A stretch of 16,326 bases of DNA from contig JBHLME010000102.1 of assembly GCA_048938445.1 (NCBI GenBank), forward strand, positions 1-16,326, given 5' to 3'. Below, piece by piece: positions 754 through 16,326 of the stretch (positions are counted from its first letter, which is position 1; every line of letters starts with the position of its first letter). The position numbers and the translations under genes are program-made. The notes below the pieces were generated by a model that was given only the letters and a program-made list of their open reading frames with translations, was not told the origin of the DNA and did no database searches. The DNA comes from Promethearchaeota archaeon (lineage in GTDB: Archaea > Asgardarchaeota > Lokiarchaeia > Sigyniarchaeales > SOKP01).

Positions 754-2175
754 ATGGTGAAGAGACCGAGTAACAAAATTATTGCAATTATTATCATCTT
801 TATCGTGGTTGGAGGTTCTCTTGGAATTATAGGTATTTACTTCTTCTTAAATAATATGGATAATGGAAATTCTGATGGTCTTAATAATATTATTATATGG
901 ACATGGGTGTCGGGAAATAAAACAACTAATATAAATGGCACATATGGTATTAAAGGTATTCCAGATTCGAGAAATCAACCAGGGAGTAGAACAGGTGCGA
1001 TTTCTTGGATAGATACAAATGATACTCTCTGGCTCTATGGAGGGTGGGGATATGGAGAATCGGAACAGGAAGGATTATTAAATGACCTGTGGAAATTTGA
1101 AGATGGGATCTGGACGTGGGTGTCAGGAAATAAAACAACTAATCTAAGTGGTACTTATGGTATTAAAGGTGTTCCTGATAAGGAAAATCATCCCGGTGGT
1201 AGAGCTTATGCTGTTTCTTGGACTGATTCTTATGATAATCTCTGGCTCTTTGGGGGATTAAGTGTTAATGAAACAGGTGTAGAAGGAGGATATAACGACT
1301 TGTGGAAATACAATGGAGTGAACTGGACCTGGGTGTCGGGAAATAAAACAGCTAGAGTGTATGGGGTGTATGGCACGAAGGGTGTTCCTGACACGGCCAA
1401 TTATCCCGGAAGTAGAGGTGCAGCGATATCTTGGATTGATTCCGATGATAATTTTTGGCTCTTTGGAGGTATAGGTTATTCTGAGCCAGAAAATATAGGA
1501 TATTTAAACGATTTATGGAAATATAATGGAGTGAACTGGACTTGGATGTCCGGGAATAAAACAATAGAACAATTTGGCGAATATGGTACAAAGGGTGTTC
1601 CTGATATGGCTAATTATCCTGGAAGTAGGGAAGATGCTATTTCTTGGACGGATTCTGACGATAATCTCTGGCTTTTTGGCGGCTGGGGGTATGCTGAACC
1701 GTTAGAGTCGGATCTCTTAAACGATCTATGGAAATTTGATGGTAAGAACTGGACATGGGTTTCAGGACAAAAAACTGCTAATTCAATTAGTGTTTATGGT
1801 ACAATGGGGGTACCAGATGCAGCAAATTATCCTGGATCTAGAGAACTTAGCCTTTCTTGGATTGATTCGAATGATAACCTCTGGCTATTTGGAGGACAAG
1901 GTTGTCTTGAGTCGGTAGGAACAACACATCTAAATGACTTGTGGAAATTTGATGGTATTAATTGGACTTGGATATCGGGAACTAAAACACTAGAGTCATT
2001 TGGCAATTATGGCACTCAAGATTTACCTGATATTACAAATTATCCTGGTGGTAGAAGCCATGCCATTTCTTGGACGGATTCTGACGATAATCACTGGTTA
2101 TTTGGAGGGTGGGGGTTTTCCGAATCAGGATCAGCAGGGCGTCTTAATGACCTGTGGAAATTTCATCTTATATAA
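754..2175 (+). CDS. Membrane-anchored Kelch-like (galactose-oxidase-type) beta-propeller protein, 6 repeats
   Basis: N-terminal basic residues plus a hydrophobic anchor (IIAIIIIFIVVGGSLGIIGIYFFL), then six repeats of WTWxSG...GxYG..G.PD..N.PG.R...SW.D..D.LWLFGG.G........LNDLWK(F/Y). GG and W are Kelch hallmarks. Confidence 0.9.
   Translation: MVKRPSNKIIAIIIIFIVVGGSLGIIGIYFFLNNMDNGNSDGLNNIIIWTWVSGNKTTNINGTYGIKGIPDSRNQPGSRTGAISWIDTNDTLWLYGGWGYGESEQEGLLNDLWKFEDGIWTWVSGNKTTNLSGTYGIKGVPDKENHPGGRAYAVSWTDSYDNLWLFGGLSVNETGVEGGYNDLWKYNGVNWTWVSGNKTARVYGVYGTKGVPDTANYPGSRGAAISWIDSDDNFWLFGGIGYSEPENIGYLNDLWKYNGVNWTWMSGNKTIEQFGEYGTKGVPDMANYPGSREDAISWTDSDDNLWLFGGWGYAEPLESDLLNDLWKFDGKNWTWVSGQKTANSISVYGTMGVPDAANYPGSRELSLSWIDSNDNLWLFGGQGCLESVGTTHLNDLWKFDGINWTWISGTKTLESFGNYGTQDLPDITNYPGGRSHAISWTDSDDNHWLFGGWGFSESGSAGRLNDLWKFHLI
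898..2172 (+). repeat. Six intragenic tandem repeats of exactly 213 nt (71 aa)
   Basis: The WTW codons (tggac.tgg) begin at 898, 1111, 1324, 1537, 1750 and 1963, a constant 213-nt spacing. Confidence 0.95.
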
Positions 2176-3314: not shown

Positions 3315-4106
3315 TTGAATAGATTTGAAGGAAAAGTTGCTTTTATAACTGGTGGTGCTTCTGGTTTGGGAGAAAAAACAGCAAAAGATTTTGCAATGGA
3401 GGGTGCAAAGGTTGTACTATTTGATTTCGACAAAGAAAATGGAGAACGTGTAGAAAAAGAAATAAAAGATAATGGTGGGAACGTGATTTTCATCGAAGGG
3501 GATGTACGATTAAAAGATCAAGTCGAAAATGGAGTAAAAACCGCATTTGAAAAGCATGGCACTGTTGATTTCTTATTGCACTCTGCAGGGATCTTACAAG
3601 ACGGGATGATAAATAAATTATCTGAAGAACGCTGGGATAATGTCATTAATACACACCTTAAAGGATTTTTCTTAGTGTTACAAGCTTGCGTTATTAGATG
3701 GATTAATTATTGCAAAGAGAATCCAAAAGAGAATATTGCGGATTATCCCGATAAAAGAGTTATAACGATTAGTAGTCAAGCAGCTGAAGGTAATATTGGC
3801 CAATTGAATTATTCCGCAGCAAAAGCTGGAATGTTAGGAATGGTTAAAACTGCCGGATTAGAATTAATACGATACAATATTAAAACCCACGCGATAATGC
3901 CTACGCTAATAGAAACCCCAATTCTAGGGGAATTATTATCAAAAGACGATGGAAAATGGAGAAAATATTATTCAGGGAGAATTCCTCTAGGAATTGGTGT
4001 TCCTGATTATGTATCAAAGGTAATTCTCTTTCTATGCAGTGAAGAATCTTGGTTCATGAATGGAGAGATCATCGGCATTAATGGTGGACGATTAGATAAA
4101 GTATAA
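3315..4106 (+). CDS. Classical short-chain dehydrogenase/reductase (FabG/3-oxoacyl- or 3-hydroxyacyl-CoA-type)
   Basis: TGGASGLG cofactor motif, Asp at the end of beta-2 (LFDFD, suggesting NAD(H)), catalytic S (ISSQA) and YSAAK, C-terminal NGEIIGINGG. The start is probably TTG at 3315 behind GAGGT (3302-3306) rather than 3300. Confidence 0.9.
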   Translation: MNRFEGKVAFITGGASGLGEKTAKDFAMEGAKVVLFDFDKENGERVEKEIKDNGGNVIFIEGDVRLKDQVENGVKTAFEKHGTVDFLLHSAGILQDGMINKLSEERWDNVINTHLKGFFLVLQACVIRWINYCKENPKENIADYPDKRVITISSQAAEGNIGQLNYSAAKAGMLGMVKTAGLELIRYNIKTHAIMPTLIETPILGELLSKDDGKWRKYYSGRIPLGIGVPDYVSKVILFLCSEESWFMNGEIIGINGGRLDKV

Positions 4107-4166
4107 AAAAATTTATATCTATTTATTTCTTTTAATAATTTTAAAAATTAAGGAGTTAATATTTTA

Positions 4167-4844
4167 ATGTCTGAACCAGTTTTATTTTACATATCTTTTG
4201 GTTTTACTATTGGATTAGTAACTGTCAAATTTATCGTTGCATACCTTCTGTTTAAAATTTTTCAGAAATCGAAAGAAAATGAATTAGTACTTGGAGCATC
4301 TTTACTCTTTTTATTTAATGGGATAGGAAGGATTTTTATGATTATTTTTGATTATGTCCTGACAAGATTTAATTCCAATTTTTACTCTACCTATTTAATT
4401 TTTTACAAGATTGGATTTTTTATTGGATTTACAGGAATTGCTTGTCTATTATTTATTTCAGAAAGAGTCATACTAAAAAAAAAATCAAAATATATGATTA
4501 CAATCGTATTTAGCATATTTTTAATTATTGCACTCATCCCTGTAGATATTAATATAGTCCAAATAATTACTATTATACCTACTACGTTTGCTATGATCTA
4601 TCTCCCATTTAGTTATCTATATCTTGCCCGATATGATAAAATCAGAATACGAGCTTTATCGATTTTTGCAGGATATTTTCTCTTTTTCTTGGTTGGTTTT
4701 TCAATTTTAGCAGAAGGTATAGTTCAATTCTATATCTCACTTAATCCTACTCATCCCTTGGAAATCAGAAGCATAATTCATATAATCTCAGTTTTTTTTA
4801 AAGTTCTTGGAATGGGGCTTATTTTATATGGTTATCGTAGGTAA
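4167..4844 (+). CDS. Polytopic membrane protein, about 7 TM helices, function unknown
   Basis: Seven hydrophobic segments in 225 aa with no soluble domain; AGGAG ribosome-binding site upstream. Confidence 0.85.
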   Translation: MSEPVLFYISFGFTIGLVTVKFIVAYLLFKIFQKSKENELVLGASLLFLFNGIGRIFMIIFDYVLTRFNSNFYSTYLIFYKIGFFIGFTGIACLLFISERVILKKKSKYMITIVFSIFLIIALIPVDINIVQIITIIPTTFAMIYLPFSYLYLARYDKIRIRALSIFAGYFLFFLVGFSILAEGIVQFYISLNPTHPLEIRSIIHIISVFFKVLGMGLILYGYRR

Positions 4845-4926
4845 ATAAAATGATAAAAATCTTTCTTTTCATATATAAAAAGATTATCTTCAATTTTATT
4901 TTGAAAAATTTCTAACTAATTGTTGT

Positions 4927-5778
4927 TTAAAGTCCAAAACTAGGAAAAAAATAATCAGACAATCTTGAAAGGTTGAATCCAAAATAATATTTAACAATAT
5001 TTAACAAAAATTCTAAGTATTCAAATTGTATTTTTGTATCATATTCTTTAGATAGAAAATCGACCAAATTTTTTTTGCTTATTTTATTATCATCTGGATA
5101 ATTTTGAAGGATTTCTATTATAGATTTAGACATTAGAAATGATTTATTGATTTCATTTTTAAAAATGATTATTGCAGATTTGGAATCTGGTTCTGACCAA
5201 AATTTCCTAACAATAATATTTTCAATTTTGGTTTTATTAGAAAATTTTTCTTTATTCTGCTGTCTTAATACAGGATTCATTCCTACAATTATATGATTTT
5301 TATATTTTTTTTTATTTTTGATATACATTGTTCTATTACTAACTGAAAAGTCATGTTCAAACGTATTAAAAAAGAGAAATTTTATTAGATTGGCAATCTG
5401 ATTAACCACAACCTCACTATCATTTATAAATAAGATATCTTTCTTTATTAATATACAATTTAAGATATTAGCTAACTCATCTTCTTTAAGATTTAGTTTT
5501 ATTAAATAAAGATCAATTTCATTCATTATTTCAGGATTAATTTGATAAGGTTCTTCCGTCATATTTATTTGAGGAAGCTCTATCATAAAGTCTGGAGTAA
5601 AAGAATCACGCATCATGAAGTTTTTATCCACATATGCAACAAAAGAATGGGGGCAGATTAATAATTCTGGGACATTTAAGGATGCTATTCCCTTCTTACT
5701 TTGTTCTACTAAAGATTCATCAATTTCGATGATCCCCATCTTAGAACAAGAAGGACATTTGACTTTTACTTTTTTCAT
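4927..5778 (-). CDS. Hypothetical protein with N-terminal CPxC...CxH zinc-ribbon and possible DENN-like core
   Basis: KVKCPSC...ICPHSFVAYVDKNF N-terminus, a pattern I associate with an expanded Lokiarchaeal family. The central LANILNCILIKKDILFIND segment resembles the cDENN core (weak). Confidence 0.8.
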   Translation of the reverse strand: MKKVKVKCPSCSKMGIIEIDESLVEQSKKGIASLNVPELLICPHSFVAYVDKNFMMRDSFTPDFMIELPQINMTEEPYQINPEIMNEIDLYLIKLNLKEDELANILNCILIKKDILFINDSEVVVNQIANLIKFLFFNTFEHDFSVSNRTMYIKNKKKYKNHIIVGMNPVLRQQNKEKFSNKTKIENIIVRKFWSEPDSKSAIIIFKNEINKSFLMSKSIIEILQNYPDDNKISKKNLVDFLSKEYDTKIQFEYLEFLLNIVKYYFGFNLSRLSDYFFPSFGL

Positions 5779-5873: not shown

Positions 5874-6431
5874 TCAAGGAGTCCAAGTGAGTATATATTG
5901 AGTTATCTTATCTCCTTCCCATGATTTTTTTAGGAATTCAAATTTCACTTTCTTTTTAAGGCACATCTCAAAAGATTTTTGCATCCATCCTATTGATGTA
6001 TAAAACCAATATTCAAACTTAGGTTCAAAATCAATGTATGCAATATGCACTTCGTTATCTGAAACCTTTTCTAATTGTAATTTACCAAAATTAAAAAGTA
6101 GTTTATGAAATCGTGGATACATTTCTAAAAGTTTATCAACTTTGCCCTCAACGATAATATTTTTATATATTGTAGACATTACAGCTTCACCGAATTGTTG
6201 CCCCCATTTTATTAAAATTTCCTTTGATTCACGTGCAAAAATCGTAGTTAAAGCATGATAACATTCATAATATGCATCAAAAGGATACCAAATTGAATCA
6301 AGAATGCGTTTATTTACTAATTCTTTCGCCTCATCAGAAAGAATGTTATCATAATCTTTGGCATTAAATTTATCTGATTTAATCCCTTTTATAATTAATT
6401 TAACTAAAGTTCCTTTTACTTTCCTCTCCAT
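5874..6431 (-). CDS. H-NOX/V4R-fold-like protein, array copy 1
   Basis: 185 aa; VKG, LSD, RILDSIWYP, WG..FGE, RFH, FNFG and GW motifs shared across the array. Confidence 0.85.
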   Translation of the reverse strand: MERKVKGTLVKLIIKGIKSDKFNAKDYDNILSDEAKELVNKRILDSIWYPFDAYYECYHALTTIFARESKEILIKWGQQFGEAVMSTIYKNIIVEGKVDKLLEMYPRFHKLLFNFGKLQLEKVSDNEVHIAYIDFEPKFEYWFYTSIGWMQKSFEMCLKKKVKFEFLKKSWEGDKITQYILTWTP

Positions 6432-6485
6432 GTTAATATCCCAACTTAAATAAAAAATTAAGTTATGATTATTATAAAAATTAAA

Positions 6486-6494
6486 GTATAAATA
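6486..6494 (-). promoter_or_regulatory. TATA-like box upstream of copy 1
   Basis: Minus-strand TATTTATAC ending 55 nt before the start codon; equivalent boxes precede the other copies. Confidence 0.4.
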
Positions 6495-6627
6495 ATTACT
6501 CTTAATGATAATATAGCTCTTTCTTTATAGAAACAAAAATTTAAATATATTTATGAATTTCCTAAAATCCATTTTGGTTCATTTTAATAAAATATGTTTA
6601 ATTTTTTTTATAGTTAAATCATTTAAC

Positions 6628-7179
6628 TTAAGAAGACCATGAAAGTTTAAATTGTGTTAAATCGGCACCTTCCCATGATTTTTTTAAAATTTCATATTGA
6701 GCTTTTTTACCAATACACAAGTCGATAAATTTATCAATCCATCCTATTGCGATATAGTAGAAGTTTCTGAAATCTTTTTCAAATTCTCTATAATTTACAA
6801 TGATTTGATTATCTGAAATGAGTTCGGATTGAATTTCACCAAAATTAAAAACCATTTTATGAAAACGGGCATATTTTTCTATGGCACTTTCAATATTTCC
6901 CTCGGTGATTGCTTGGGAATAAATTCGTGTCATCAACCGCTCACTTTCCACCCTACCCCATTTTATTATGACTTCTTTCTTATCGTTAGCAGTAACTTTA
7001 CATAATGCATTAAAGCACTCTTTATAAATGTCAAAAGGATACCATATCGAATCAAGAATTCTTTGATTCATCATTTCTTTTGCTTTATCTGAAAGGATAT
7101 TATCATAGGTCCCACTCTTATCAGCTTTTATTGCTTTAATAATCATTTTAAACATTGTTCCTTTTACTTGTTTCAACAT
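6628..7179 (-). CDS. H-NOX/V4R-fold-like protein, array copy 2
   Basis: 183 aa; same motifs; His107 codon at 6861-6859. Confidence 0.85.
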   Translation of the reverse strand: MLKQVKGTMFKMIIKAIKADKSGTYDNILSDKAKEMMNQRILDSIWYPFDIYKECFNALCKVTANDKKEVIIKWGRVESERLMTRIYSQAITEGNIESAIEKYARFHKMVFNFGEIQSELISDNQIIVNYREFEKDFRNFYYIAIGWIDKFIDLCIGKKAQYEILKKSWEGADLTQFKLSWSS

Positions 7180-7243
7180 AATACCAACCTTATCAATTAC
7201 TTAAATAAAGAAATAATTCCCCATGAATCATATGAAAACTCAA

Positions 7244-7252
7244 GTATAAAAA
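7244..7252 (-). promoter_or_regulatory. TATA-like box upstream of copy 2
   Basis: Minus-strand TTTTTATAC, 65 nt from the start codon. Confidence 0.55.
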
Positions 7253-7487
7253 TGTAATATATATTCAATAGGAATTATTTGCCTTTTTTTTATTCCTTTT
7301 GTTTAAATTTCAACGAAATCAATTACTAGAACAATTAACAACTTTAAAATAAGGATTCCAATTACTTTTAAACTGTTTCACGAAATTTTTCGATGAAATA
7401 ATAAAGTTATATTTAAATTTTTATAAATTCAACCATAAATGAATTAATCAAATAATTAAGGCGGACTATTTAAAACCTGAGTTCAAA

Positions 7488-8039
7488 TTATGAATTCCAA
7501 TATAACGTGAATGTTGTAGCAGTATCCCCATTCCATGATTGTTTTAAGATTCTAAAATTAACTTTTTTTCCAATACATAATTCCATGAATCGTTGCATCC
7601 ATCCAATCGCTATGTAGTAAAAAAATTCCCAATCCCTTTCAAATCTTTCATAAGTAATATTTATTTGAGTCTCTGAGATTTTTTCAGTTTTTATTTCCCC
7701 CCAATTGTAAACTAATGTATGAAAACGCCTATATCTTTCAAGAAGTTTCTCGATATCACTGTCAACAATAGTGTTTTTATATATTGATGTCATTATCCCT
7801 TCCCCAAATTTTTGACCCCATTGATTAAGAATTTTAGGATTATCTCTACCATCAATCTTAACAACCGCATCATGAATGCTTCGATATGCTTCATATGAAT
7901 ACCAAATTGAATCAAGAATTCTTTGGGATACTAAATTTTTTGCATCATCTGTAAGTATATTATCATAATCTCCATTTTTATTGGCTCTTGCTGCCTTAAC
8001 CATTAATTTAACCATTGTTCCTTTTACTTGTTTTGACAT
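7488..8039 (-). CDS. H-NOX/V4R-fold-like protein, array copy 3
   Basis: 183 aa; VKG, QRILDSIWY, RFH, NWGE, IAIGW. Confidence 0.85.
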   Translation of the reverse strand: MSKQVKGTMVKLMVKAARANKNGDYDNILTDDAKNLVSQRILDSIWYSYEAYRSIHDAVVKIDGRDNPKILNQWGQKFGEGIMTSIYKNTIVDSDIEKLLERYRRFHTLVYNWGEIKTEKISETQINITYERFERDWEFFYYIAIGWMQRFMELCIGKKVNFRILKQSWNGDTATTFTLYWNS

Positions 8040-8103
8040 GATGAAATTCTTATTATTTACTCAAATAAAAAAAACCTCCCCTCTATTTCTAATAATAATC
8101 CAT

Positions 8104-8112
8104 GTATAAAAA
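8104..8112 (-). promoter_or_regulatory. TATA-like box upstream of copy 3
   Basis: Minus-strand TTTTTATAC, 65 nt from the start codon. Confidence 0.55.
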
Positions 8113-8375
8113 TTTATCTTATATTATTAAATACCAGTCAAAAATCCTTTTTGATTTTAATTTAAATTCTATTTTAAAGCATTTACAAAAAAAAACCATA
8201 AATAAAGAATTAAAAATATAGTAATATGATCCCTTAGTTGTAATAAAAATTCATATTAAGTAAAAGAGATGGTTAGAATCGATATATCTAATAATTTTAT
8301 GTAATGTAATTATAGGAGAAGGTAAGAATTTATGTCAAATAATTCTGAGGTATATACATTATTCTATTTTTAATA

Positions 8376-8927
8376 CTAAGAAGACCAAAAAAGAATGAAT
8401 TCGGTTGAATCGTCTCCTTCCCAAGATTTTTTTATAATTTTATACTCAATCTTTTTACCAATACATAATTCCATGAAACGGAGAACCCATCCTATTGCTA
8501 TGTAATAAACATCTTGCCAATCTTTTTGAAAATTTTCATAAATGATCTTTATTTGGTTATCTGATGTTAATTTTGCTTTGAACTCGCCCCAATTGAAGAC
8601 TAATGGATGAAAACGCTGGTATTTATCTAAAAGTATTTCGATATCTCTATCAACCATGGTATTTTTATAAATTGACGTCATTAAAGCTTCGCCAAAACGT
8701 TTACCCCATTCAACAAGGATTTTAGGATTGTTTTTACCATCAACTTTAACGACGGCATCATGAATGTTTCTATATACCTCATATGGATACCAAATTGAAT
8801 CAAGTATTCTTTGTTCTGTTATTCTTTTAGCCTCATCTGAAAGCAGGGTATCATAGATTCCACTTTTATTTGCTCTCACTGCCTTTACCATTAATTTAAA
8901 TAATGATCCTTTTACTTTTTTCTCCAA
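8376..8927 (-). CDS. H-NOX/V4R-fold-like protein, array copy 4
   Basis: 183 aa; TTG start preceded by GGGGA; most similar to copy 3. Confidence 0.85.
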   Translation of the reverse strand: MEKKVKGSLFKLMVKAVRANKSGIYDTLLSDEAKRITEQRILDSIWYPYEVYRNIHDAVVKVDGKNNPKILVEWGKRFGEALMTSIYKNTMVDRDIEILLDKYQRFHPLVFNWGEFKAKLTSDNQIKIIYENFQKDWQDVYYIAIGWVLRFMELCIGKKIEYKIIKKSWEGDDSTEFILFWSS

Positions 8928-8991
8928 TAAAAATCCCCTATGATTATATGTTGATGAAAAGAAAAAATCTATTATAATAATGAAAATTTAA

Positions 8992-9006
8992 CTATAAATA
9001 TTTTTC
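8992..9006 (-). promoter_or_regulatory. BRE/TATA-like element upstream of copy 4
   Basis: Minus-strand GAAAAA-TATTTATAG, 65 nt from the start codon. Confidence 0.55.
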
Positions 9007-9077
9007 ATATTTACAAAGCAATTCATATTAATAAGGATTAGAAATTCCTATAAAAAAAAAATAGTCTTTTATAAAAT

Positions 9078-9629
9078 TCAAGAAGGCCATGAAAGTAAAC
9101 ATTGCGTAATACTTCCACCTTCCCATGATTTATTTAATATCTTAAGAGTCGGTTTTTTATTAATACATAACTCGACAAATTTTTCTAACCAACCAAAGGC
9201 GATATAATACCAATTTTTAAAATCTCGATCTACTCCTTGATAAGTTACTATAAGTTGATTATCGGCAGGAAACTCTACTAGTATTTTACCAAAATTATAT
9301 ACCAGGTTGTGAAAGCGCCGATATTTTTCCATGCTTCTTTTAATATCTCCCTTAACAACAGATAATTTATAAGTTGATGTCATTGCCATTTCACAATATT
9401 GATTACCCCATCGCATCAACGTTTTAGGATTTTCCTTTCCTTCAACTATGCTTAAAGCATTATATAACTCTTTATATAATTCAAAAGGATACCATATGGA
9501 ATCAAGGATTCTCTGAGTGATAAAACTTTTTGCTGCATCCGAAAGAATATCATCATACACTCCACTTTTATTTGCCCGAATAGGTATCACAACTATTTTA
9601 AGGAGTGTACCTTTTACTTGTTTTTTCAA
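9078..9629 (-). CDS. H-NOX/V4R-fold-like protein, array copy 5
   Basis: 183 aa; TTG start preceded by GGGGAG; RFH conserved. Confidence 0.85.
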   Translation of the reverse strand: MKKQVKGTLLKIVVIPIRANKSGVYDDILSDAAKSFITQRILDSIWYPFELYKELYNALSIVEGKENPKTLMRWGNQYCEMAMTSTYKLSVVKGDIKRSMEKYRRFHNLVYNFGKILVEFPADNQLIVTYQGVDRDFKNWYYIAFGWLEKFVELCINKKPTLKILNKSWEGGSITQCLLSWPS

Positions 9630-9691
9630 AATATCTCCCCTGATAATTTATAAAAAAGAAATAAATACTTAAATTAGTATTAAAATTCCAA

Positions 9692-9704
9692 ACATAAATA
9701 TTTT
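9692..9704 (-). promoter_or_regulatory. BRE/TATA-like element upstream of copy 5
   Basis: Minus-strand AAAA-TATTTATGT, 63 nt from the start codon. Confidence 0.5.
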
Positions 9705-9856
9705 AGTTTAAATAGAAAAATTCGTGTCCATATCTCAAAAAGAAATTATGTGTGAATTTTTAAATTTTTTTTTGTTTGAATTGAAATTAAAGAATAAGAT
9801 TATAATAATGTATAAAGATTTAATTCAAATTCATAAAAATGAGGCTATATATATTC

Positions 9857-10405
9857 TTAAGAAGGCCATGAAAGCTTGAATTGTGTTTCATTGTCTCCTT
9901 CCCATGATTTCTTCAATATTTCAAGAGTCAATTTTTTATCAATAACTATTTCAATAAACCTTTCTAACCATCCAAATGCGAGATAATACCAATTTTTAAA
10001 ATCTCGATCGATATCTCTGTAAGTCACTATGAGTTGATTATCGGTAGGAAATTCTATTAAAATTTTACCGAAATTATATGTGAGTGTGTGAAAGCGTTGA
10101 TATTTATCAATGCTTCTTTTAAGATCTCCCTTAACGATTGATAATTTATAAATTGATGTCATTAAGATTTCACCAAAATGCTTACCCCATTCATGTATGA
10201 TTTTTGTATTATCTCTCGCTTCAACCTTGCATAAAGCATTTAAGCATTCTTTATAAACGTCAAATGGATACCATGCGGCATCAAGAATTCTTTGTTTCAA
10301 CATTTCTTTCGCTTTATCTGAAAGAAGATTTTCATATGCCCCATTTTTATTTGCTTTTATTGCCTTTATGGTAAATTTAGCCATTGATCCTTTTACTTGC
10401 TTCAT
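9857..10405 (-). CDS. H-NOX/V4R-fold-like protein, array copy 6
   Basis: 182 aa; ATG start preceded by GGGGAG; RFH conserved. Confidence 0.85.
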   Translation of the reverse strand: MKQVKGSMAKFTIKAIKANKNGAYENLLSDKAKEMLKQRILDAAWYPFDVYKECLNALCKVEARDNTKIIHEWGKHFGEILMTSIYKLSIVKGDLKRSIDKYQRFHTLTYNFGKILIEFPTDNQLIVTYRDIDRDFKNWYYLAFGWLERFIEIVIDKKLTLEILKKSWEGDNETQFKLSWPS

Positions 10406-10515: not shown

Positions 10516-11718
10516 TTAGTCTTTATTGGCTTTTGTTTTTTGTATTTCTTTTATGAGAATGGGAATTACCTTGTTTAAATCTCCTACAATACCATAATGA
10601 GCGACTTTAAAAATCGATGCGGCAGGATCCTTATTTATCGCAACTATTATATCCGAGTTCTGCATTCCAACTTGATGTTGTATGGCACCAGAGATACCGC
10701 ATGCAATGTATAACTTGGGTGAAACAGTTTTTCCAGTTTGACCCACCTGCCTATCATGGTCAATCCAATTCAATTCAACCGCTACTCTTGATCCCCCTAT
10801 TTCAGCACCTAATACATTTGCTAACTCTTCGATGGTCTTGAAATTCTCTTTACTTCCTACGCCTCGTCCACCAGAGACAATGATTTCTGCATCTTCAAGG
10901 TTTACAGAAACCTTTTGTTTAGATATAACCTTAACAATCTTGGTGATGGAATCATTCTTACTATAGTCTCGTTCTATCGTGTTAATTTTAACATCTTTTT
11001 GCTTCTTTTTAAGAGATTTAAAAATACCTGGTCTCACGGTTGCCATTTGAGGTCTACTCGTGGGAGTCCTTATTGTCGCCATGATATTACCCCCAAAAGT
11101 AGGTCTTGTCTGTCGTAAATTTCCCGTCTCATCTTCAATATCTAAACCCGTACAATCTGCAGTTAATCCAGCATTCAACCTCTTTGCCACTCTCGGAGCA
11201 AAATCGCGACCAGTTGGAGTTGCTCCTATTAAAACAATTTCAGGTTTATATTCTTCTATTAATTCTGTTAAAATACTTACATATAAATCAGAATAGTAAT
11301 CTTTTAAAACATCAGATTTTACATATATTATCTCATCTTCTCCAAATTGGCTAAGATCTTCTAATTGATCGGTAAAATTTGCGCCTAATACCACTAAAGT
11401 CAAGTTTACTTTCAATCTATCAGCTAATTGTCTCCCTTTTCCTAGAAGTTGGTAAGCTACAGGATGTATCTCATTTTTATAATGTTCTGCAATTACCCAA
11501 ACACCTTTATATTGAGTAATATCAATTTTTTTTGCTTTAAATTCCTCACGTTCTAAAATGATTGCATCAACAGGGCACGAGTCAACGCAAGCACCACAGA
11601 GGTTGCAAGTATCTTGAATGCAAGCCTTTCCATCTATAACTTCAATTCCTCCATAAGGGCAATTTACTACACAGCTTTCACATCCTGTGCATAATTCATC
11701 TTCAATTCTTATACTCAT
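10516..11718 (-). CDS. etfA: Electron transfer flavoprotein alpha subunit with N-terminal 2x[4Fe-4S] ferredoxin domain
   Basis: CTGCESCVVNCP and CNLCGACVDSCP, then GLTADCT, TRPTFGGN, VSGGRG, RQVGQTGKTVSPKLYIACGISGAIQH and AINKD. Confidence 0.95.
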   Translation of the reverse strand: MSIRIEDELCTGCESCVVNCPYGGIEVIDGKACIQDTCNLCGACVDSCPVDAIILEREEFKAKKIDITQYKGVWVIAEHYKNEIHPVAYQLLGKGRQLADRLKVNLTLVVLGANFTDQLEDLSQFGEDEIIYVKSDVLKDYYSDLYVSILTELIEEYKPEIVLIGATPTGRDFAPRVAKRLNAGLTADCTGLDIEDETGNLRQTRPTFGGNIMATIRTPTSRPQMATVRPGIFKSLKKKQKDVKINTIERDYSKNDSITKIVKVISKQKVSVNLEDAEIIVSGGRGVGSKENFKTIEELANVLGAEIGGSRVAVELNWIDHDRQVGQTGKTVSPKLYIACGISGAIQHQVGMQNSDIIVAINKDPAASIFKVAHYGIVGDLNKVIPILIKEIQKTKANKD

Positions 11719-11730
11719 TCATATTTCACC

Positions 11731-12537
11731 TCAGATTAACTTGTCTTCTTTCAAATATTCGCATAATTTTTCTACTTGTTGCTCTATTTTCCCTTCTAAA
11801 ATAATGTGTTCTCCTTTTCTTTTTGGAACAAAAATCTTCCATACTTCAGTCATCGATCCTGATAAACCAATATTTTCTTTTTTAGCACCTAAAGAGATAG
11901 AATTTAAATGCATTACTTCTTTTTTAGAGTAAGCATTTTCAATATCTTTCAATGTAGGATATCTAGGATGATTTATTTCTTTTAATACAGAAATTAGTGC
12001 TGGTAATTTAGTTTCAATTACTACTGTTTCATCTTGTCGGAAAGCTCTCTCAATAATTACTTTATTCCCCTTGATTTCAAACTTCAAGACGTAAGTTATT
12101 TGTGGGATATCCAGCTCTTCAGCCATTTCCGGACCCACTTGGGCAGTATCTCCATCTATGGCTTGGACACCACAGATGACGAGGTATTTATCTTTATTAC
12201 CAGTGTCTTTTAAAATCTTTTTTACAGCTAATGCTAAAGTATAAGATGTTGCAAGAGTGTCTGCTCCCGCAAATGCCCTATCCGTAAGCAGATATGCCTT
12301 GTCTGCACCCATTGCTAGTGCTTCTCTTAATACTTCTTCTGCTTGAGGGGGGCCCATGCTGAGAGCAATTATCTCTCCATTATAATTTTCTTTTAAAGTT
12401 AAAGCTAACTCCACGGCGTGCTTGTCATGGGGATTCATGATGGAAGGTATTCCTTCTCGTATTAAAGTATTAGTCTTTGGATCAATCTTCACCTCAGAAA
12501 TTCCAGGAACTTGCTTAATACAAACAAATATTTTCAT
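11731..12537 (-). CDS. etfB: Electron transfer flavoprotein beta subunit
   Basis: VCIKQVP, LSMGPP, ALAMGAD, DRAFAGADTLATS, CGVQAIDGDTAQVGP. Confidence 0.95.
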   Translation of the reverse strand: MKIFVCIKQVPGISEVKIDPKTNTLIREGIPSIMNPHDKHAVELALTLKENYNGEIIALSMGPPQAEEVLREALAMGADKAYLLTDRAFAGADTLATSYTLALAVKKILKDTGNKDKYLVICGVQAIDGDTAQVGPEMAEELDIPQITYVLKFEIKGNKVIIERAFRQDETVVIETKLPALISVLKEINHPRYPTLKDIENAYSKKEVMHLNSISLGAKKENIGLSGSMTEVWKIFVPKRKGEHIILEGKIEQQVEKLCEYLKEDKLI

Positions 12538-12540
12538 ATT

Positions 12541-13698
12541 TTATACCTCCGGAAATTGCCCTCTTAATAAATGGTTCGCGATTACCATTCTTTGGATCTC
12601 TGAAGTTCCCTCATAAATTTCTCCCATTTTTGCGTCCCGAAAATATCTTTCGACAGCATACGCTTTCATTAAACCATATCCTCCATGAATTTGAACTGCT
12701 GAATGGGTTGCTTTCATTGCGGCTTCAGAAGCCTTGAGTTTAGCCATTGATCCTACTAAACCATAAGGGATTCCTTGATCGCACATCCAAGCTGCTTTAT
12801 ACGTTAATAAACGACCAGTCTCTACATCTACACCCATATCTGCCAATTTCCATTGAATTCCTTGGAAACGGCTAATAGGTTGGTTAAATTGCACTCTCTC
12901 TTTAGAATATTTTATAGAGGCCTCTAATGCTGCTTGACCTAAACCAACACATTGAGCTGCCATTAAAATTCTTCCATAATCTAGTACTTTAAGTCCAAGT
13001 TTAAATCCATCTCCAACTTTCCCTAAAACATTATTTTCTGGAATTCTGACATTATCAAAAACGAGTTCACACGTGCTAGATGCTCGAACACCAAGTTTAT
13101 CTTCTTTTACTCCCACAGAATAACCCGGGGTATCCGTGTCAACAATGAATAATGTCAATTGTTTTCTCTTTCCCACTTCACTAGTATTTGCGACAACAAG
13201 AAGGGTATTAGCAATTCCTCCGTTTGTAGCAAAAATCTTACTACCATTCAAAACCCATTCATCTCCATCTAGATATGCATTAGTTTCAACGCCTCCCGCA
13301 TCCGAACCTGCATTAGCTTCTGTCAAGCAGAAAGCACCTATTTTATCACCTTTAGCAACATCGATCAGAAATTTTTTTCTCTGGTCTTCTGTACCATATT
13401 TATATATGGGATAAGCACAGACACTTGCATGGACAGCAAAAGTGATTGACCAGGAAGCGTCTATTCGCCCAATCTCTTCAGTAGCAATCGCAAAACCTAA
13501 GGTATCTAATCCCGCTCCTCCATATTCTTGTGGTATGCTAGCTCCAAAGTAATTCATCCTTTTCAATTCTTCCATTACTTTTGGGTCTAGTTGCGAGTTT
13601 TGATCACTTTCTTCGGCGACAGGCTCTATAAACTCTTCTGCAAATTCACGAGTAATTTTTCTTACCATTTTATGCTTTTCTGTTAATGAGAAATCCAT
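12541..13698 (-). CDS. bcd: Short-chain acyl-CoA dehydrogenase (butyryl-CoA dehydrogenase-like)
   Basis: AFCLTEANAGSD, LNGSKIFATNG, EDKLGVRAS, RVQFNQPI, QIHGGYG, YFRDAK and EIYEGTSEIQR (catalytic Glu). Exact substrate uncertain. Confidence 0.9.
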   Translation of the reverse strand: MDFSLTEKHKMVRKITREFAEEFIEPVAEESDQNSQLDPKVMEELKRMNYFGASIPQEYGGAGLDTLGFAIATEEIGRIDASWSITFAVHASVCAYPIYKYGTEDQRKKFLIDVAKGDKIGAFCLTEANAGSDAGGVETNAYLDGDEWVLNGSKIFATNGGIANTLLVVANTSEVGKRKQLTLFIVDTDTPGYSVGVKEDKLGVRASSTCELVFDNVRIPENNVLGKVGDGFKLGLKVLDYGRILMAAQCVGLGQAALEASIKYSKERVQFNQPISRFQGIQWKLADMGVDVETGRLLTYKAAWMCDQGIPYGLVGSMAKLKASEAAMKATHSAVQIHGGYGLMKAYAVERYFRDAKMGEIYEGTSEIQRMVIANHLLRGQFPEV

Positions 13699-14157
13699 CT
13701 ATTATCACGAATTTAGTAATTTTACTTTAATTAGGTAAGAAAAGAGAGTAAAAAATTAAAAATTTTGTGAATGAATTACATAAGGATATTCTTATTGATA
13801 ATAATAAAATAACTAGTGAGTTTAATCAATAAATATAACAATAAAAATGAAAAAATGAAAAATATTTACCACTCAGCTGAATGACTTCATATTTAATATG
13901 GTTTTACAGCAGAACTATAATTATTCATTATTTTATATGGTTTTTAAAAGTACTTTAACATTGCAGTTAATGATTATTATTTTTTTATATCATATTTTAT
14001 GAATAAATATAAATTAGTTTTTTTTTATATTGTTTTTATAATAATATATTTAATCAAATTTCTTGGTCAAATATTTTGATCAGATTTTTTTTAAGAAAAA
14101 GTATCAAGTTTTATGATCTATTTGAAAAAAAAATAAAAAAATAAAAGATGGTCATTA

Positions 14158-14577
14158 TTGTCGAAAGATGGAATATTAAATAAATTGAATAATTTGGTTG
14201 GTGAATTTACAGATTCGCAAAGCGATGTTCAAGGACAAATCGTCATAGCTTTTCCTGCAGGAGTTCCAATTGCGAATACTTGGAAGGGAGAATTGGATCC
14301 CGTTTTAATTGGTGCTGTTTCTGCTGCAGTTAACCTCACTTTTCAAAATTTATGCATGAATTTAAAAAAAGGACTCATAAAAAAAATATTTGTAAATAGT
14401 GAATTGGGGAGAGTTATTATTCAGAAAATAGGAGAACGTGCAATATTAACAACTATTATTGCTGAAGAAGCAGATGTATTCCGCATTTCTTTTGGTATTA
14501 GCAGTTTATCAATTAAAATAAATGATCTATTAAAATCATTTAAAGGGAGTCTTGATGATCTTTTGTTTACGATTTAA
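14158..14577 (+). CDS. Roadblock/LC7 (MglB/LAMTOR-like) domain protein
   Basis: 139 aa; helix, beta-hairpin (GQIVIAFPAGVPIA), helix (IGAVSAA), three strands (IFVNSELGRVII...AILTTI), helix. TTG start. Confidence 0.85.
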   Translation: MSKDGILNKLNNLVGEFTDSQSDVQGQIVIAFPAGVPIANTWKGELDPVLIGAVSAAVNLTFQNLCMNLKKGLIKKIFVNSELGRVIIQKIGERAILTTIIAEEADVFRISFGISSLSIKINDLLKSFKGSLDDLLFTI

Positions 14578-14597
14578 TAGGATGGTGAATTGAGAGA

Positions 14598-15569
14598 ATG
14601 TCAGATAATATAAATCTAATGGAATATTTACATGAAATTGAAGATACTACTGATTTGAATGGATGTTTTTTTATAAATGTTGAAAGTTATAAAGTAATCG
14701 AATCAACAATTCCTTTTGCTGTTCCAGAAGAGATTTTATGGGAATTAAGTGTATTAAGAGACACATTCCAGCAGTTTGGAAAGGGATTCCAACATGGTAA
14801 TCTCCAAGAATTAATGATAGAAGGAGATAGAGGATACATCTTATTTTACAATGTTCCACCTCATTTGATTTTATTAGCAATGGGAAAAGATGATATAAAT
14901 TTAGCATATGTAAAACTAGCAATGATAGATGTCTTGAAAAACATAAGAGATGAGATCAGAGCTCTTGGAGATAAAGTATTAACCATACCTGCTAAAGGAT
15001 TCGGAAAAATTGGCATCGAGGTAGAACCCATCAAACCAATCTCTGCTTCTGAATCTACAATATCTGAACCTATTCCAGTTGAACAACCCATTTCTGAACC
15101 TGAGGCTATTAAAACAACCATACCTGAAATGGAAGTGAAAGAAATCTCTATTTCTGAACCAGAAACATTGGAGGCACCTCCTTCTGAACCAGTGATTGAA
15201 AGAGCTACGAGTCTTGTACCTGTTGAAACAACTACTACATTACCCGCTTCTGAAGCTGAAGAAATACCAAATTTATCGGATCTTATTAATTCAATAAAAC
15301 AAGCTTCTGATGAAGAAAAATTTACAATTTTAAATGTAGCATTTAATAGGCTAAAAGAAGAAATCGTTAATTTAACAGGAGTAAAAGTTGCAGAAATTCT
15401 TGAACAATTAAAAGATGCGATATTGGAAAGAATTGGAACATCATTAGCCTTATTTGATATTTCAAGAACTTCTCGTGAGGTAAACAAAAATCATAGTACA
15501 CTCCAACCAAATGAAATTGAGAAATATAAAGATAGAATTCAAAATTGGGCAACAAGAATTATAAAATAA
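14598..15569 (+). CDS. Roadblock/LC7-domain protein with Pro/Glu/Ser-rich linker and helical C-terminal domain
   Basis: N-terminal ~125 aa contain GNLQELMIEGDRGYILFYNV...INLAYVKLAM (Roadblock pattern), followed by a SEP-rich linker and a ~95-aa helical tail. Confidence 0.8.
   Translation: MSDNINLMEYLHEIEDTTDLNGCFFINVESYKVIESTIPFAVPEEILWELSVLRDTFQQFGKGFQHGNLQELMIEGDRGYILFYNVPPHLILLAMGKDDINLAYVKLAMIDVLKNIRDEIRALGDKVLTIPAKGFGKIGIEVEPIKPISASESTISEPIPVEQPISEPEAIKTTIPEMEVKEISISEPETLEAPPSEPVIERATSLVPVETTTTLPASEAEEIPNLSDLINSIKQASDEEKFTILNVAFNRLKEEIVNLTGVKVAEILEQLKDAILERIGTSLALFDISRTSREVNKNHSTLQPNEIEKYKDRIQNWATRIIK
15036..15265 (+). repeat. Degenerate TCTGAA(CC) / (I)SEP repeats encoding a low-complexity linker
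   Basis: tctgaa recurs six times (ASES, ISEP x3, PSEP, ASEA) with irregular spacing. Confidence 0.6.
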
Positions 15570-15583
15570 TGGGTGATAAATAG

Positions 15584-16138
15584 TTGAGCATAACATTATA
15601 TAAAATTGAGGGTCGGGAAATAATTCCAACAGAAGAGACTGAATTCAAGGAGGATAGTATCTATATTATAATCGATAAGAGTAGAAAAAAAGGAAAGATT
15701 TGGATATGGAGTGGATCTGAGGCAAAAAGCATGGATCGCTATTTTGCGGGAGTATCCGCAACAAAAATAAAATCGAATAAGAGATTATATGGTGCAAGCA
15801 TTGAAGTGGTTGAGGGTGGAAATGAACCTGATTATTTTCCAGATCTGAAAAATGTTGCGATAAAAGAGGCTACAGAAGAGAAAATTAAGTTTGAAAAAAT
15901 AATTGTTCCCGTTTCAGAACAAGAGGAAATAAAACTAATTAAAGCTAAAAGCAAAGGTTCAGCACCTCAAGTAAAATCTAAACAAGCCCCTGTACAAGAG
16001 GTATCTAAAGAAGAAATAAGCAAAGAAAAAGAATCAAAATTATTGTTAAAACAAAATATTACTTCTTTGCTAAAAGAAATCTCCTTAGACATGGAGAAAA
16101 TTCAAAATAAAATACAATCATTTTTAAATAATTTATAG
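15584..16138 (+). CDS. Single gelsolin/villin-domain protein with C-terminal coiled-coil-like tail (Asgard gelsolin-like)
   Basis: DSIYIIID...KIWIWSGSEA...RYFAGVSATKI...IEVVEGGNEPDYF matches the gelsolin repeat pattern (D.FILD, IFVW.G, V.QG.EP..F). The tail ITSLLKEISLDMEKIQNKIQSFL is heptad-like. TTG start after GGGTGA. Confidence 0.85.
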   Translation: MSITLYKIEGREIIPTEETEFKEDSIYIIIDKSRKKGKIWIWSGSEAKSMDRYFAGVSATKIKSNKRLYGASIEVVEGGNEPDYFPDLKNVAIKEATEEKIKFEKIIVPVSEQEEIKLIKAKSKGSAPQVKSKQAPVQEVSKEEISKEKESKLLLKQNITSLLKEISLDMEKIQNKIQSFLNNL

Positions 16139-16190: not shown

Positions 16191-16326
16191 ATGTTGGACG
16201 CGGGTGTAGGTATAACCACAGAAAAAGATAGTTATTCTGCAGGGAAAATTGTTGCTAAAGAAGCTTTAGAGAATATGAGTGTAAAACCAAAATTAGCGAT
16301 ATTGGTTATAGACGCCCTTTCACGTA
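16191..16326 (+). CDS. Probable FIST (NosP-like) domain protein, N-terminal fragment
   Basis: Not in the ORF track. MLDAGVGITTEKDSYSAGKIVAKEALENMSVKPKLAILVIDALSR... is open to the edge and fits the GVG.S...D...AG..AA..AL....P.L N-terminus of FIST proteins. Confidence 0.7.
   Translation, partial: MLDAGVGITTEKDSYSAGKIVAKEALENMSVKPKLAILVIDALSR

Follow-up and report, generated by a model that had tools for sequence, protein, structure and literature searches.

The genes considered here have their closest described counterparts in two groups of Asgard proteins. The first are the Thorarchaeota gelsolins ProGel, 2DGel and 1DGelX (structures 7c2f, 7c2g and 7c2h), of which 1DGelX, a gelsolin domain followed by a coiled-coil region X, binds actin with a Kd of 7.7 µM and severs filaments without calcium (PMC7444086); the accessible text of that report makes no mention of the operons or gene neighbours of these gelsolins. 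The second are the Asgard Roadblock proteins of solved structure (7yh1, 7f8m, 9jue and 9jq8), which are stand-alone homodimers. The accessible part of the paper on these describes Roadblock proteins as obligate dimers that serve as adaptors or GTPase regulators (PMC10933270); for 9jue, no publication was found in the literature. Here we describe a locus from a Promethearchaeota archaeon (Lokiarchaeia; Sigyniarchaeales; GenBank assembly GCA_048938445.1, contig JBHLME010000102.1). The stretch analysed, called the window below, is the entire contig, C12, of 16,326 bases in a genome of 4.63 Mb and 256 contigs. Three adjacent genes near its end encode a plain Roadblock protein (RoblA), a second Roadblock protein with a long linker and a helical domain (RoblB), and a protein with a single gelsolin domain (Gel). 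A preliminary description, made from the sequence alone, had taken these three for an operon of their own in which a Roadblock pair, a candidate GTPase regulator, would be coupled to an actin regulator. We found that RoblA-RoblB-Gel is the front end of a seven-gene block, all members of which are present in this genome. The parts are members of known families; what is new is the combination, which is inherited as a block. No published description of a Roadblock-gelsolin-FIST-LuxE-LuxC block was found in the Asgard, FIST/LuxC and chemotaxis literature, a search of the main texts of mostly open-access articles.

Gel has the same single gelsolin/cofilin-type core as the Thorarchaeota proteins and, among described proteins, is closest to the 1DGelX/ProGel group. 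It resembles 1DGelX in architectural outline, as both have one domain followed by a helical, coiled-coil-like extension. Gel is shorter, with 184 amino acids (aa), a disordered tether and one terminal helix, whereas 1DGelX ran near the size of actin on gels, as far as the available text of the report goes (PMC7444086). RoblA is close to a solved Roadblock of strain MK-D1, and both RoblA and the head of RoblB share the full architecture of the Asgard Roadblocks with N- and C-terminal helices. The difference is that the locus has two dissimilar genes side by side, one of them with a tether and a helical domain.

Several systems resemble the block as a whole. The Myxococcus MglA-MglB(-MglC) switch, which is fed by the chemosensory pathway Frz, ties Roadblock-fold regulators to polarity and motility, and MglB is the best match of RoblB in structure comparisons with VIA. 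A further likeness to this switch is that a paralogue of Gel sits in a chemosensory operon together with a Roadblock-Ras fusion (see below). However, the cognate Ras-like GTPase gene is absent from our block, and the output of the Mgl switch is not a gelsolin. Ragulator-Rag uses heterodimeric Roadblock pairs as a nutrient-sensing platform; there the GTPase is present, whereas the block is without one. The Asgard LAMTOR1-like/Rab-like/DENN operon is conserved and has a Roadblock-superfamily gene, as our block does, but it contains a GTPase, and the accessible text on it mentions neither FIST nor LuxC (10.1101/2020.10.19.343400); the block has FIST, LuxE, LuxC and a gelsolin. Finally, LuxE and LuxC of the block match the same Pfam families as the LuxC-LuxE fatty-acid reductase of luminous bacteria. 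No luciferase or LuxD family appeared when the block was scanned with Pfam, and its LuxC differs from that of luminous bacteria in its length, in an insertion and in its constant association with FIST and Roadblock genes.

In relatives the full gene order is RoblA, RoblB, Gel, FIST, LuxE and a long type of LuxC, followed by a convergent HEAT/PCI-like gene. In the window, a FIST gene starts 52 nucleotides (nt) downstream of Gel and is broken off at the contig end. The orthologues of this fragment are 438-aa proteins with FIST_N (E 2.7e-16) and FIST_C (E 3.2e-7) domains. A second contig of the same genome, C240, carries FIST residues 21 to 438, then LuxE, LuxC and the convergent HEAT/PCI-like gene. 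The end of the window (16250-16326) and the start of C240 (1-77) overlap exactly over 77 nt, which means that the two contigs adjoin in the genome and that the block is complete and was split only by the assembler. As FIST follows so closely and the remaining genes continue on C240, the three genes are not the stand-alone operon that had been proposed. The FIST proteins have an invariant cysteine in the motif FDCAIR (10 orthologues), and no PDB sequence match was obtained for them at E <= 1. LuxE has about 394 aa (Pfam E 2.6e-41). LuxC of the block has 553-588 aa (Pfam E 1.9e-79), and its profile is matched in two pieces, with an insertion unlike ordinary LuxC. The HEAT/PCI-like protein is a helical-repeat protein of 520-600 aa with weak Adaptin_N/Cnd1 matches and, in one copy, a PCI match of 24.7 bits (cut-off 22).

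The spacing of the genes suggests how the block is organised. Over 22 loci including the window, some of which are near-duplicates so that not all are independent, the median gaps are 2 nt between RoblA and RoblB, 14 nt between RoblB and Gel, 51 nt between Gel and FIST, 186 nt between FIST and LuxE, 87.5 nt between LuxE and LuxC, and 36 nt between LuxC and the convergent HEAT/PCI-like gene. We take this pattern to mean that RoblA-RoblB-Gel-FIST is one tight operon, that LuxE and LuxC form a unit, perhaps with a promoter of its own, and that the seventh gene stands convergent to them. In the window itself the first three gaps are 20, 14 and 52 nt, with all four genes on the + strand; the tight spacing of 20 and 14 nt given for the trio in the preliminary description was exact.

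The block was surveyed in 154 genomes of the order. RoblB is present in 19 of these, and in 18 of the 19 a Gel orthologue lies directly downstream of it. The exception is G037, where locus L041 passes from RoblB straight to FIST. The long LuxC type occurs in 17 of the 19 genomes with RoblB and in none of the 135 others; the two RoblB-bearing genomes without it are G002 (68% complete) and G282. The order RoblA-RoblB-Gel-FIST is held at every one of the 22 loci where the contig allows it to be read, and it persists where protein identity has fallen to 33-45% and also in a second family (G035). The synteny across Lokiarchaeia that had been proposed as a check on the trio is thus strongly conserved, and as all related loci examined repeat this gene order, the arrangement is far beyond chance. 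Upstream of RoblA, almost every genus has a different gene: an acyl-CoA dehydrogenase gene here, a six-gene paralogue array in G005, and elsewhere an FGGY kinase, a PIN protein, an unknown protein, an FrhB-like gene with ribosomal-protein genes beyond, a succinyl-CoA-ligase-like gene or, in two cases, a small GTPase. As the flanking genes vary between loci, they define the borders of the block. A metagenome scan with the FIST alignment gave eight loci, six of which were the same lokiarchaeal block and two of which were distant FISTs without it.

The features of the block within the window are as follows (position 1 is the first base of the contig).

13699..14157, no strand: presumed promoter region of the block, a 459-nt AT-rich (GC 0.27) intergenic stretch from the divergent acyl-CoA dehydrogenase gene to RoblA (read from the sequence)
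14158..14577, + strand: RoblA, stand-alone Roadblock with both terminal helices, 139 aa, TTG start, first cistron (open reading frame, profile)
14584..14588, + strand: Shine-Dalgarno-like GGTGA, 9 nt 5' of the RoblB ATG (sequence)
14598..15569, + strand: RoblB, 323 aa, ATG start (open reading frame)
14598..15002, + strand: RoblB residues 1-135, predicted Roadblock domain (AlphaFold2 model, Foldseek, VIA)
15003..15263, + strand: RoblB residues 136-222, Pro/Glu-rich linker predicted to be disordered (alignment; predicted local distance difference test score, pLDDT, <50)
15267..15566, + strand: RoblB residues 224-323, conserved predicted helical bundle, like the C-terminal domain (CTD) of Vps28 by fold only (conservation, model)
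15572..15576, + strand: Shine-Dalgarno-like GGTGA, 7 nt 5' of the Gel TTG (sequence)
15584..16138, + strand: Gel, 184 aa, TTG start (open reading frame)
15584..15868, + strand: Gel residues 1-95, single gelsolin domain (Pfam, profile, model, Foldseek)
15896..16006, + strand: Gel residues 105-141, acidic variable linker predicted to be disordered (alignment, pLDDT <50)
16010..16132, + strand: Gel residues 143-183, conserved amphipathic C-terminal helix (conservation, model, paralogue alignment)
16191..16326, + strand: first 45 codons of the FIST gene, broken off at the contig end (orthologues of the fragment)

A GTGA also sits 7 nt 5' of the FIST ATG at 16191, and the GGTGA and GTGA motifs are probably the ribosome-binding sites of the internal cistrons.

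Single-sequence Pfam scans of the three proteins were weak, so the assignments were settled by profiles and models. RoblA reached only 15.3 bits and RoblB 13.7 bits with Robl_LC7 (PF03259), both below the cut-off of 23. A profile of 16 RoblA orthologues (mean column identity 62%), when compared with the PDB, matched the MK-D1 Roadblock3 (9jue) with an E-value of 1.6e-19, followed by the Thorarchaeota Roadblock 7f8m (E 1.6e-7) and the solved Roadblock 7f8f (E 0.0015), which places RoblA in the Roadblock/LC7 family. The AlphaFold2 model of RoblB, built from 28 sequences with a mean pLDDT of 75.8, has a Roadblock fold in residues 1-130 (pLDDT around 90), a disordered part in residues 136-222 (pLDDT <50) and a five-helix bundle in residues 226-322 (pLDDT around 90). 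The modelled head has the alpha-beta-beta-alpha-beta-beta-beta-alpha order of Roadblock proteins. It matches 9jue in Foldseek (E 5e-7, TMt 0.81-0.83) and MglB 6hjm in VIA (Z 15.8, root-mean-square deviation [rmsd] 2.2, 123 aligned residues), and structure comparison also returned LAMTOR2 and Rag C-terminal domains. RoblA and RoblB are only distant paralogues (hhalign E 1.7e-4, 18% identity over 107 columns). As the two genes are paired, dissimilar and co-inherited, we infer that their products probably form a heterodimer. Complex prediction with Gel as partner to RoblA, RoblB 1-135 and RoblB 224-323 gave an ipSAE of 0.00 in two runs, which were made without controls and count neither way.

Gel itself is a borderline Pfam match as a single sequence (Gelsolin, PF00626; 21.0 bits at a cut-off of 21, E 3e-4), and one orthologue reaches 24.4 bits. 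A profile of 26 relatives matched Thorarchaeota 2DGel3 (7c2h) with an E-value of 1.7e-10 and eukaryotic gelsolin domains, including gelsolin G2, at about 3e-6, and on this basis Gel belongs to the gelsolin family. The AlphaFold2 model gives a domain in residues 1-95 (pLDDT around 90), low confidence for residues 105-141 (<50) and a helix in residues 143-183 (around 90). With this model Foldseek returned 112 matches at E <= 0.001, and the matches listed are gelsolin-family chains, some under titles of actin-complex entries; against Thorarchaeota ProGel (7c2f_B) the TMt is 0.78 and the rmsd 1.8 over 83 columns. The modelled domain is a gelsolin fold. Among the 26 relatives the long helix 49-65, E81-P82 and a GNEP..FP motif are nearly invariant. 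The near-invariance of helix 49-65 and E81-P82 shows constraint and does not identify the partner. Fused long forms of Gel were not found among proteins of 323-2000 aa, which is weak evidence. All three descriptions in the preliminary account, a plain Roadblock, a Roadblock with a long linker and helical domain, and a one-domain gelsolin with a coiled-coil-like tail, agree with these profiles and models.

The linker of RoblB varies in length and sequence among the orthologues and shows no conservation in the alignment. In the orthologue of locus L041 (1666-2490) it consists of a charged EEARRKA-type repeat that is not Pro/Glu-rich and would form a single long helix. The tail bundle, on the other hand, has conserved motifs (GTSLALFDIS and RIDNW..RIIK). 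In VIA it matches the CTD of yeast Vps28 (2j9u_A), a four-helix bundle, with a Z of 10.1, an rmsd of 2.4 and 87 aligned residues of a 94-residue chain, a level of Z that helical bundles reach by chance. In the ESM Atlas its TM scores are 0.66-0.68 to Vps28-type models and 0.74-0.80 to domains of many Promethearchaeota proteins; one row of these matches, for a DUF11 cluster, is a structural lead only. None of eight members matched Vps28 (PF03997) at E <= 10, and a profile of these eight sequences found no relative in the PDB or Pfam by sequence. Kinship with Vps28 is without sequence support, and we therefore call the domain Vps28-CTD-like by fold only. The hidden Markov model (HMM) of the tail also had no match among the proteins of the chemotaxis operons described below, so the idea that these operons carry the same docking domain found no sequence support. 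A match to this HMM (E 4.4e-4) was seen in the C-terminus (260-324) of a 325-aa protein without a Pfam family (L045, G163:C19, 4409-5386, + strand), which is encoded a few kb from a short-type LuxE/LuxC pair.

Which of the genes belonged together first can be judged from relatives with a partial set. Of 400 Asgard genomes, 59 encode LuxC. The short types of this protein (about 430-490 aa) lie together with genes for an AMP-ligase, an acyl carrier protein and an iron-containing alcohol dehydrogenase, with no FIST or Roadblock gene nearby, whereas the long type is always accompanied by FIST and Roadblock genes. In another family of the same class, locus L052 (G168) has a HEAT-like gene (258 aa), FIST, LuxE, LuxC (553 aa) and two Roadblock genes, without a gelsolin. 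One of these Roadblocks has 121 aa (Pfam 26.9 bits, above the cut-off) and the other is a Roadblock-like protein of 152 aa without the tail domain. Together with L041, this locus indicates that the conserved partners of the Roadblock pair are FIST and LuxE/LuxC, and it suggests that Gel and the tail of RoblB were added within the order. The gelsolin looks like an added output of an older Roadblock-FIST-LuxCE core. That the Roadblock pair is coupled in the first place to an actin regulator, as had been proposed, does not agree with its retention beside FIST-LuxE-LuxC in loci that have no gelsolin.

Relatives of Gel are not confined to this block. In genomes that lack the block, weaker Gel matches (E 1e-12 to 1e-18; 171-195 aa) pointed to another conserved cluster, at nine loci (L064, L068, L065-L067, L069-L071 and L073). 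Its order, Pfam-scanned in full in L064 and L068, is CheA, a DUF11 protein, an unknown 280-aa protein, a CheW-CheC fusion, the Gel paralogue, CheR, CheB, CheD, CheC, a 318-aa protein that combines an N-terminal Roadblock match with a Ras domain, and a second CheB-like gene. In the alignment the paralogues share with Gel the gelsolin head, a short variable tether and the conserved C-terminal helix, which in Gel has the motif LLKEIS.D...IQ.KI..FL. The genome of the window has no chemotaxis-type Gel paralogue at E <= 1e-3. Gel and the chemotaxis paralogue belong to one gelsolin family, used in two different sensory operons, each with Roadblock domains. The lokiarchaeal chemotaxis operon is similar to our block in combining a gelsolin of the same head, tether and helix with a Roadblock domain, but the input is the Che pathway instead of FIST/LuxCE, and the Roadblock is fused to the GTPase. 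This type of gelsolin thus recurs in sensory operons, and the position of the paralogue beside a Roadblock-Ras fusion gene lends indirect support to the general notion that such gelsolins may act together with Roadblock domains and small GTPases. Che genes and eight gelsolin-like genes have been reported for Lokiarchaeum ossiferum, and in the available text no connection is drawn between them (PMC9834061). A different arrangement was seen at L072 (G013:C14:32600-45200), where a second Gel orthologue (196 aa; 6029-6619, - strand) is convergent to a second HEAT/PCI-like gene (593 aa; 3613-5394, + strand; PCI 24.7 bits), with no Roadblock, FIST or Lux genes nearby. The Gel and HEAT/PCI genes thus seem to have been duplicated as a pair, which hints that they work together.

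From the gene content, order, spacing, joint presence or absence and folds observed, we propose that a four-gene operon RoblA-RoblB-Gel-FIST, locked in evolution to LuxE/LuxC and the HEAT/PCI-like gene, acts as a chemical-sensing unit. We give this reading about even odds (a probability of roughly 0.5), a figure that comes mostly from the block being one functional unit and less from the direction of signal flow. LuxE and LuxC reduce activated acids to aldehydes, and FIST is presumed to be a sensor domain for small ligands. In the mechanism that we propose, LuxE and LuxC would make or remove an aldehyde, and FIST, with its invariant cysteine, would read a small molecule or metabolite linked to this aldehyde. 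The RoblA-RoblB heterodimer would be the adaptor platform for FIST and perhaps for LuxE/LuxC. Gel would be the output arm added within the order, held by its terminal helix on a flexible tether and passing the signal to Lokiactin filaments. It is possible that a small GTPase takes part, in which case it would be encoded outside the block. RoblB and Gel share a layout in which a long disordered tether joins a folded head to a conserved helical module at the end of the chain, and this suggests that they may be held in one assembly through these terminal modules.

Several observations weigh against this proposal. The gaps before LuxE, 60-307 nt, permit separate transcription. The small-molecule role of FIST is taken from general knowledge of the family. 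Gel is absent from the block at L041, in the same order, which means that the block functions in its absence. The likeness of the RoblB tail to Vps28 is at a level that helical bundles attain by chance. Finally, presence is patchy: only 19 of 154 genomes are positive, with 1 of 54 in one genus and 0 of 42 in a second, and these queries detected no copy in the single-contig genomes of the order. The patchy distribution argues that the block is accessory, occurring in about one in eight genomes of the order, and not a core cytoskeletal regulator. It would be a specialised circuit and no universal Asgard feature.

To our knowledge, the control of the actin skeleton in Asgard archaea is an open question: we know of gelsolins and profilins having been tested only as isolated proteins and of no trigger for their action. 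With the block, four to seven defined proteins that can be cloned are at hand to ask whether chemical sensing couples to actin. A wider version of the proposal, which we put forward tentatively, is that Lokiarchaeia own a tethered gelsolin family (head, disordered tether and docking helix) through which sensory modules of the prokaryotic type may direct their output at actin. One paralogue would be wired to chemotaxis, beside the Roadblock-Ras fusion, and the Gel of the window would be wired through the Roadblock heterodimer to a FIST that reads an aldehyde from its own LuxE/LuxC. In that case an operon would encode a direct route by which the closest prokaryotic relatives of eukaryotes sense small molecules and remodel actin in response, and Roadblock adaptors would already hold the position known from eukaryotic nutrient and polarity signalling.

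A different interpretation, nearer to the preliminary description, is that RoblA and RoblB form an MglB- or Ragulator-like heterodimer acting on a GTPase encoded elsewhere, with Gel as the actin effector of a polarity or cytoskeleton unit, and that FIST and LuxCE are merely co-located. We consider this unlikely. The best structural matches of RoblB are indeed MglB, LAMTOR2 or Rag C-terminal domains, about 51 Ras-like places were counted in the genome, and the Gel paralogue of the chemotaxis operons is close to a Roadblock-Ras fusion. However, the statement that no small GTPase gene lies in the window was correct and extends to C240, as no small-GTPase-like sequence was found on either contig. 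Among the 11 loci analysed, a small GTPase adjoins the block in two, which exceeds the expectation of about 1% per neighbour (GTPases make up about 1% of genes), and the other nine have none. The two adjacent GTPases differ in family and orientation: in G020 it is a divergent 946-aa Ras/Roc-LRR protein and in G011 a 514-aa Arf-like protein on the same strand. A module of the MglA/MglB or Ragulator/Rag type, with the cognate GTPase gene kept beside the Roadblocks, was therefore not observed. A GTPase partner may be encoded elsewhere in the genome, but nothing points to one. In addition, the Roadblock pair is kept with FIST-LuxE-LuxC even without the gelsolin (L052 and L041), and Roadblock domains are described, in the accessible part of a recent source, as adaptors that are widespread in prokaryotes and not tied to GTPases (PMC12962969). 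The block also shows that a Roadblock pair in an Asgard genome is no sure sign of GTPase regulation. The original interpretation is partly supported: its domain assignments and the conserved linkage stand, but the unit comprises more than three genes and is anchored in FIST/LuxCE and not in a GTPase.

It is also doubtful that the Roadblocks, Gel, FIST and the HEAT/PCI-like protein are structural or regulatory subunits of a long LuxC/LuxE reductase, for example for the synthesis of a lipid-derived aldehyde or alcohol, with the gelsolin domain serving as a protein-protein module without actin contact, as in Sec23/24. The tightest phyletic link of the block is indeed with the long LuxC (17 of 19 against 0 of 135), whose insertion is absent from ordinary LuxC, and Sec23 has gelsolin-like domains without an actin role, according to the available text of PMC11914678. 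The block of the window also adjoins an operon for an acyl-CoA dehydrogenase and an electron-transfer flavoprotein (ETF), but such fatty-acid oxidation genes are adjacent in this genome only. Moreover, ordinary LuxE/LuxC pairs need no such partners, the closest relatives of Gel by profile and fold are actin-binding Asgard gelsolins, and the Gel paralogue sits in a signalling operon and not in a metabolic one. That the three genes are neighbours by chance or by recent shared ancestry, without functional coupling, is very improbable: most loci do come from one family of closely related uncultured archaea and are not independent, but the order is kept at 33-45% identity and in the second family while the flanks are replaced in nearly every genus, and presence and absence are coupled across the 154 genomes, so that the synteny and phyletic data contradict chance adjacency.

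The remainder of the window contains other genes. The acyl-CoA dehydrogenase/ETF operon, which adjoins a LuxE/LuxC block only here, lies at 10516-13698 on the - strand, divergent from RoblA, and encodes the acyl-CoA dehydrogenase (385 aa), an ETF-beta-sized protein (268 aa) and an ETF alpha protein (400 aa) fused to an N-terminal 2x[4Fe-4S] ferredoxin domain. At 5874-10405 (- strand) there are six tandem paralogues of 182-185 aa, which are 34-54% identical to a six-gene array in G005; in G005 this array directly adjoins the Roadblock block. The copies scanned had no Pfam family. By language-model features they resemble hypothetical proteins of about 185 aa, mostly from Myxococcota (score 0.95; DUF2378 on 11% of one cluster). 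Finally, the gene at 754-2175 (+ strand) encodes a protein of 473 aa that has a membrane helix at its N-terminus and six or seven very regular Kelch-type repeats (NDLWKF..W.W.SG.KT).

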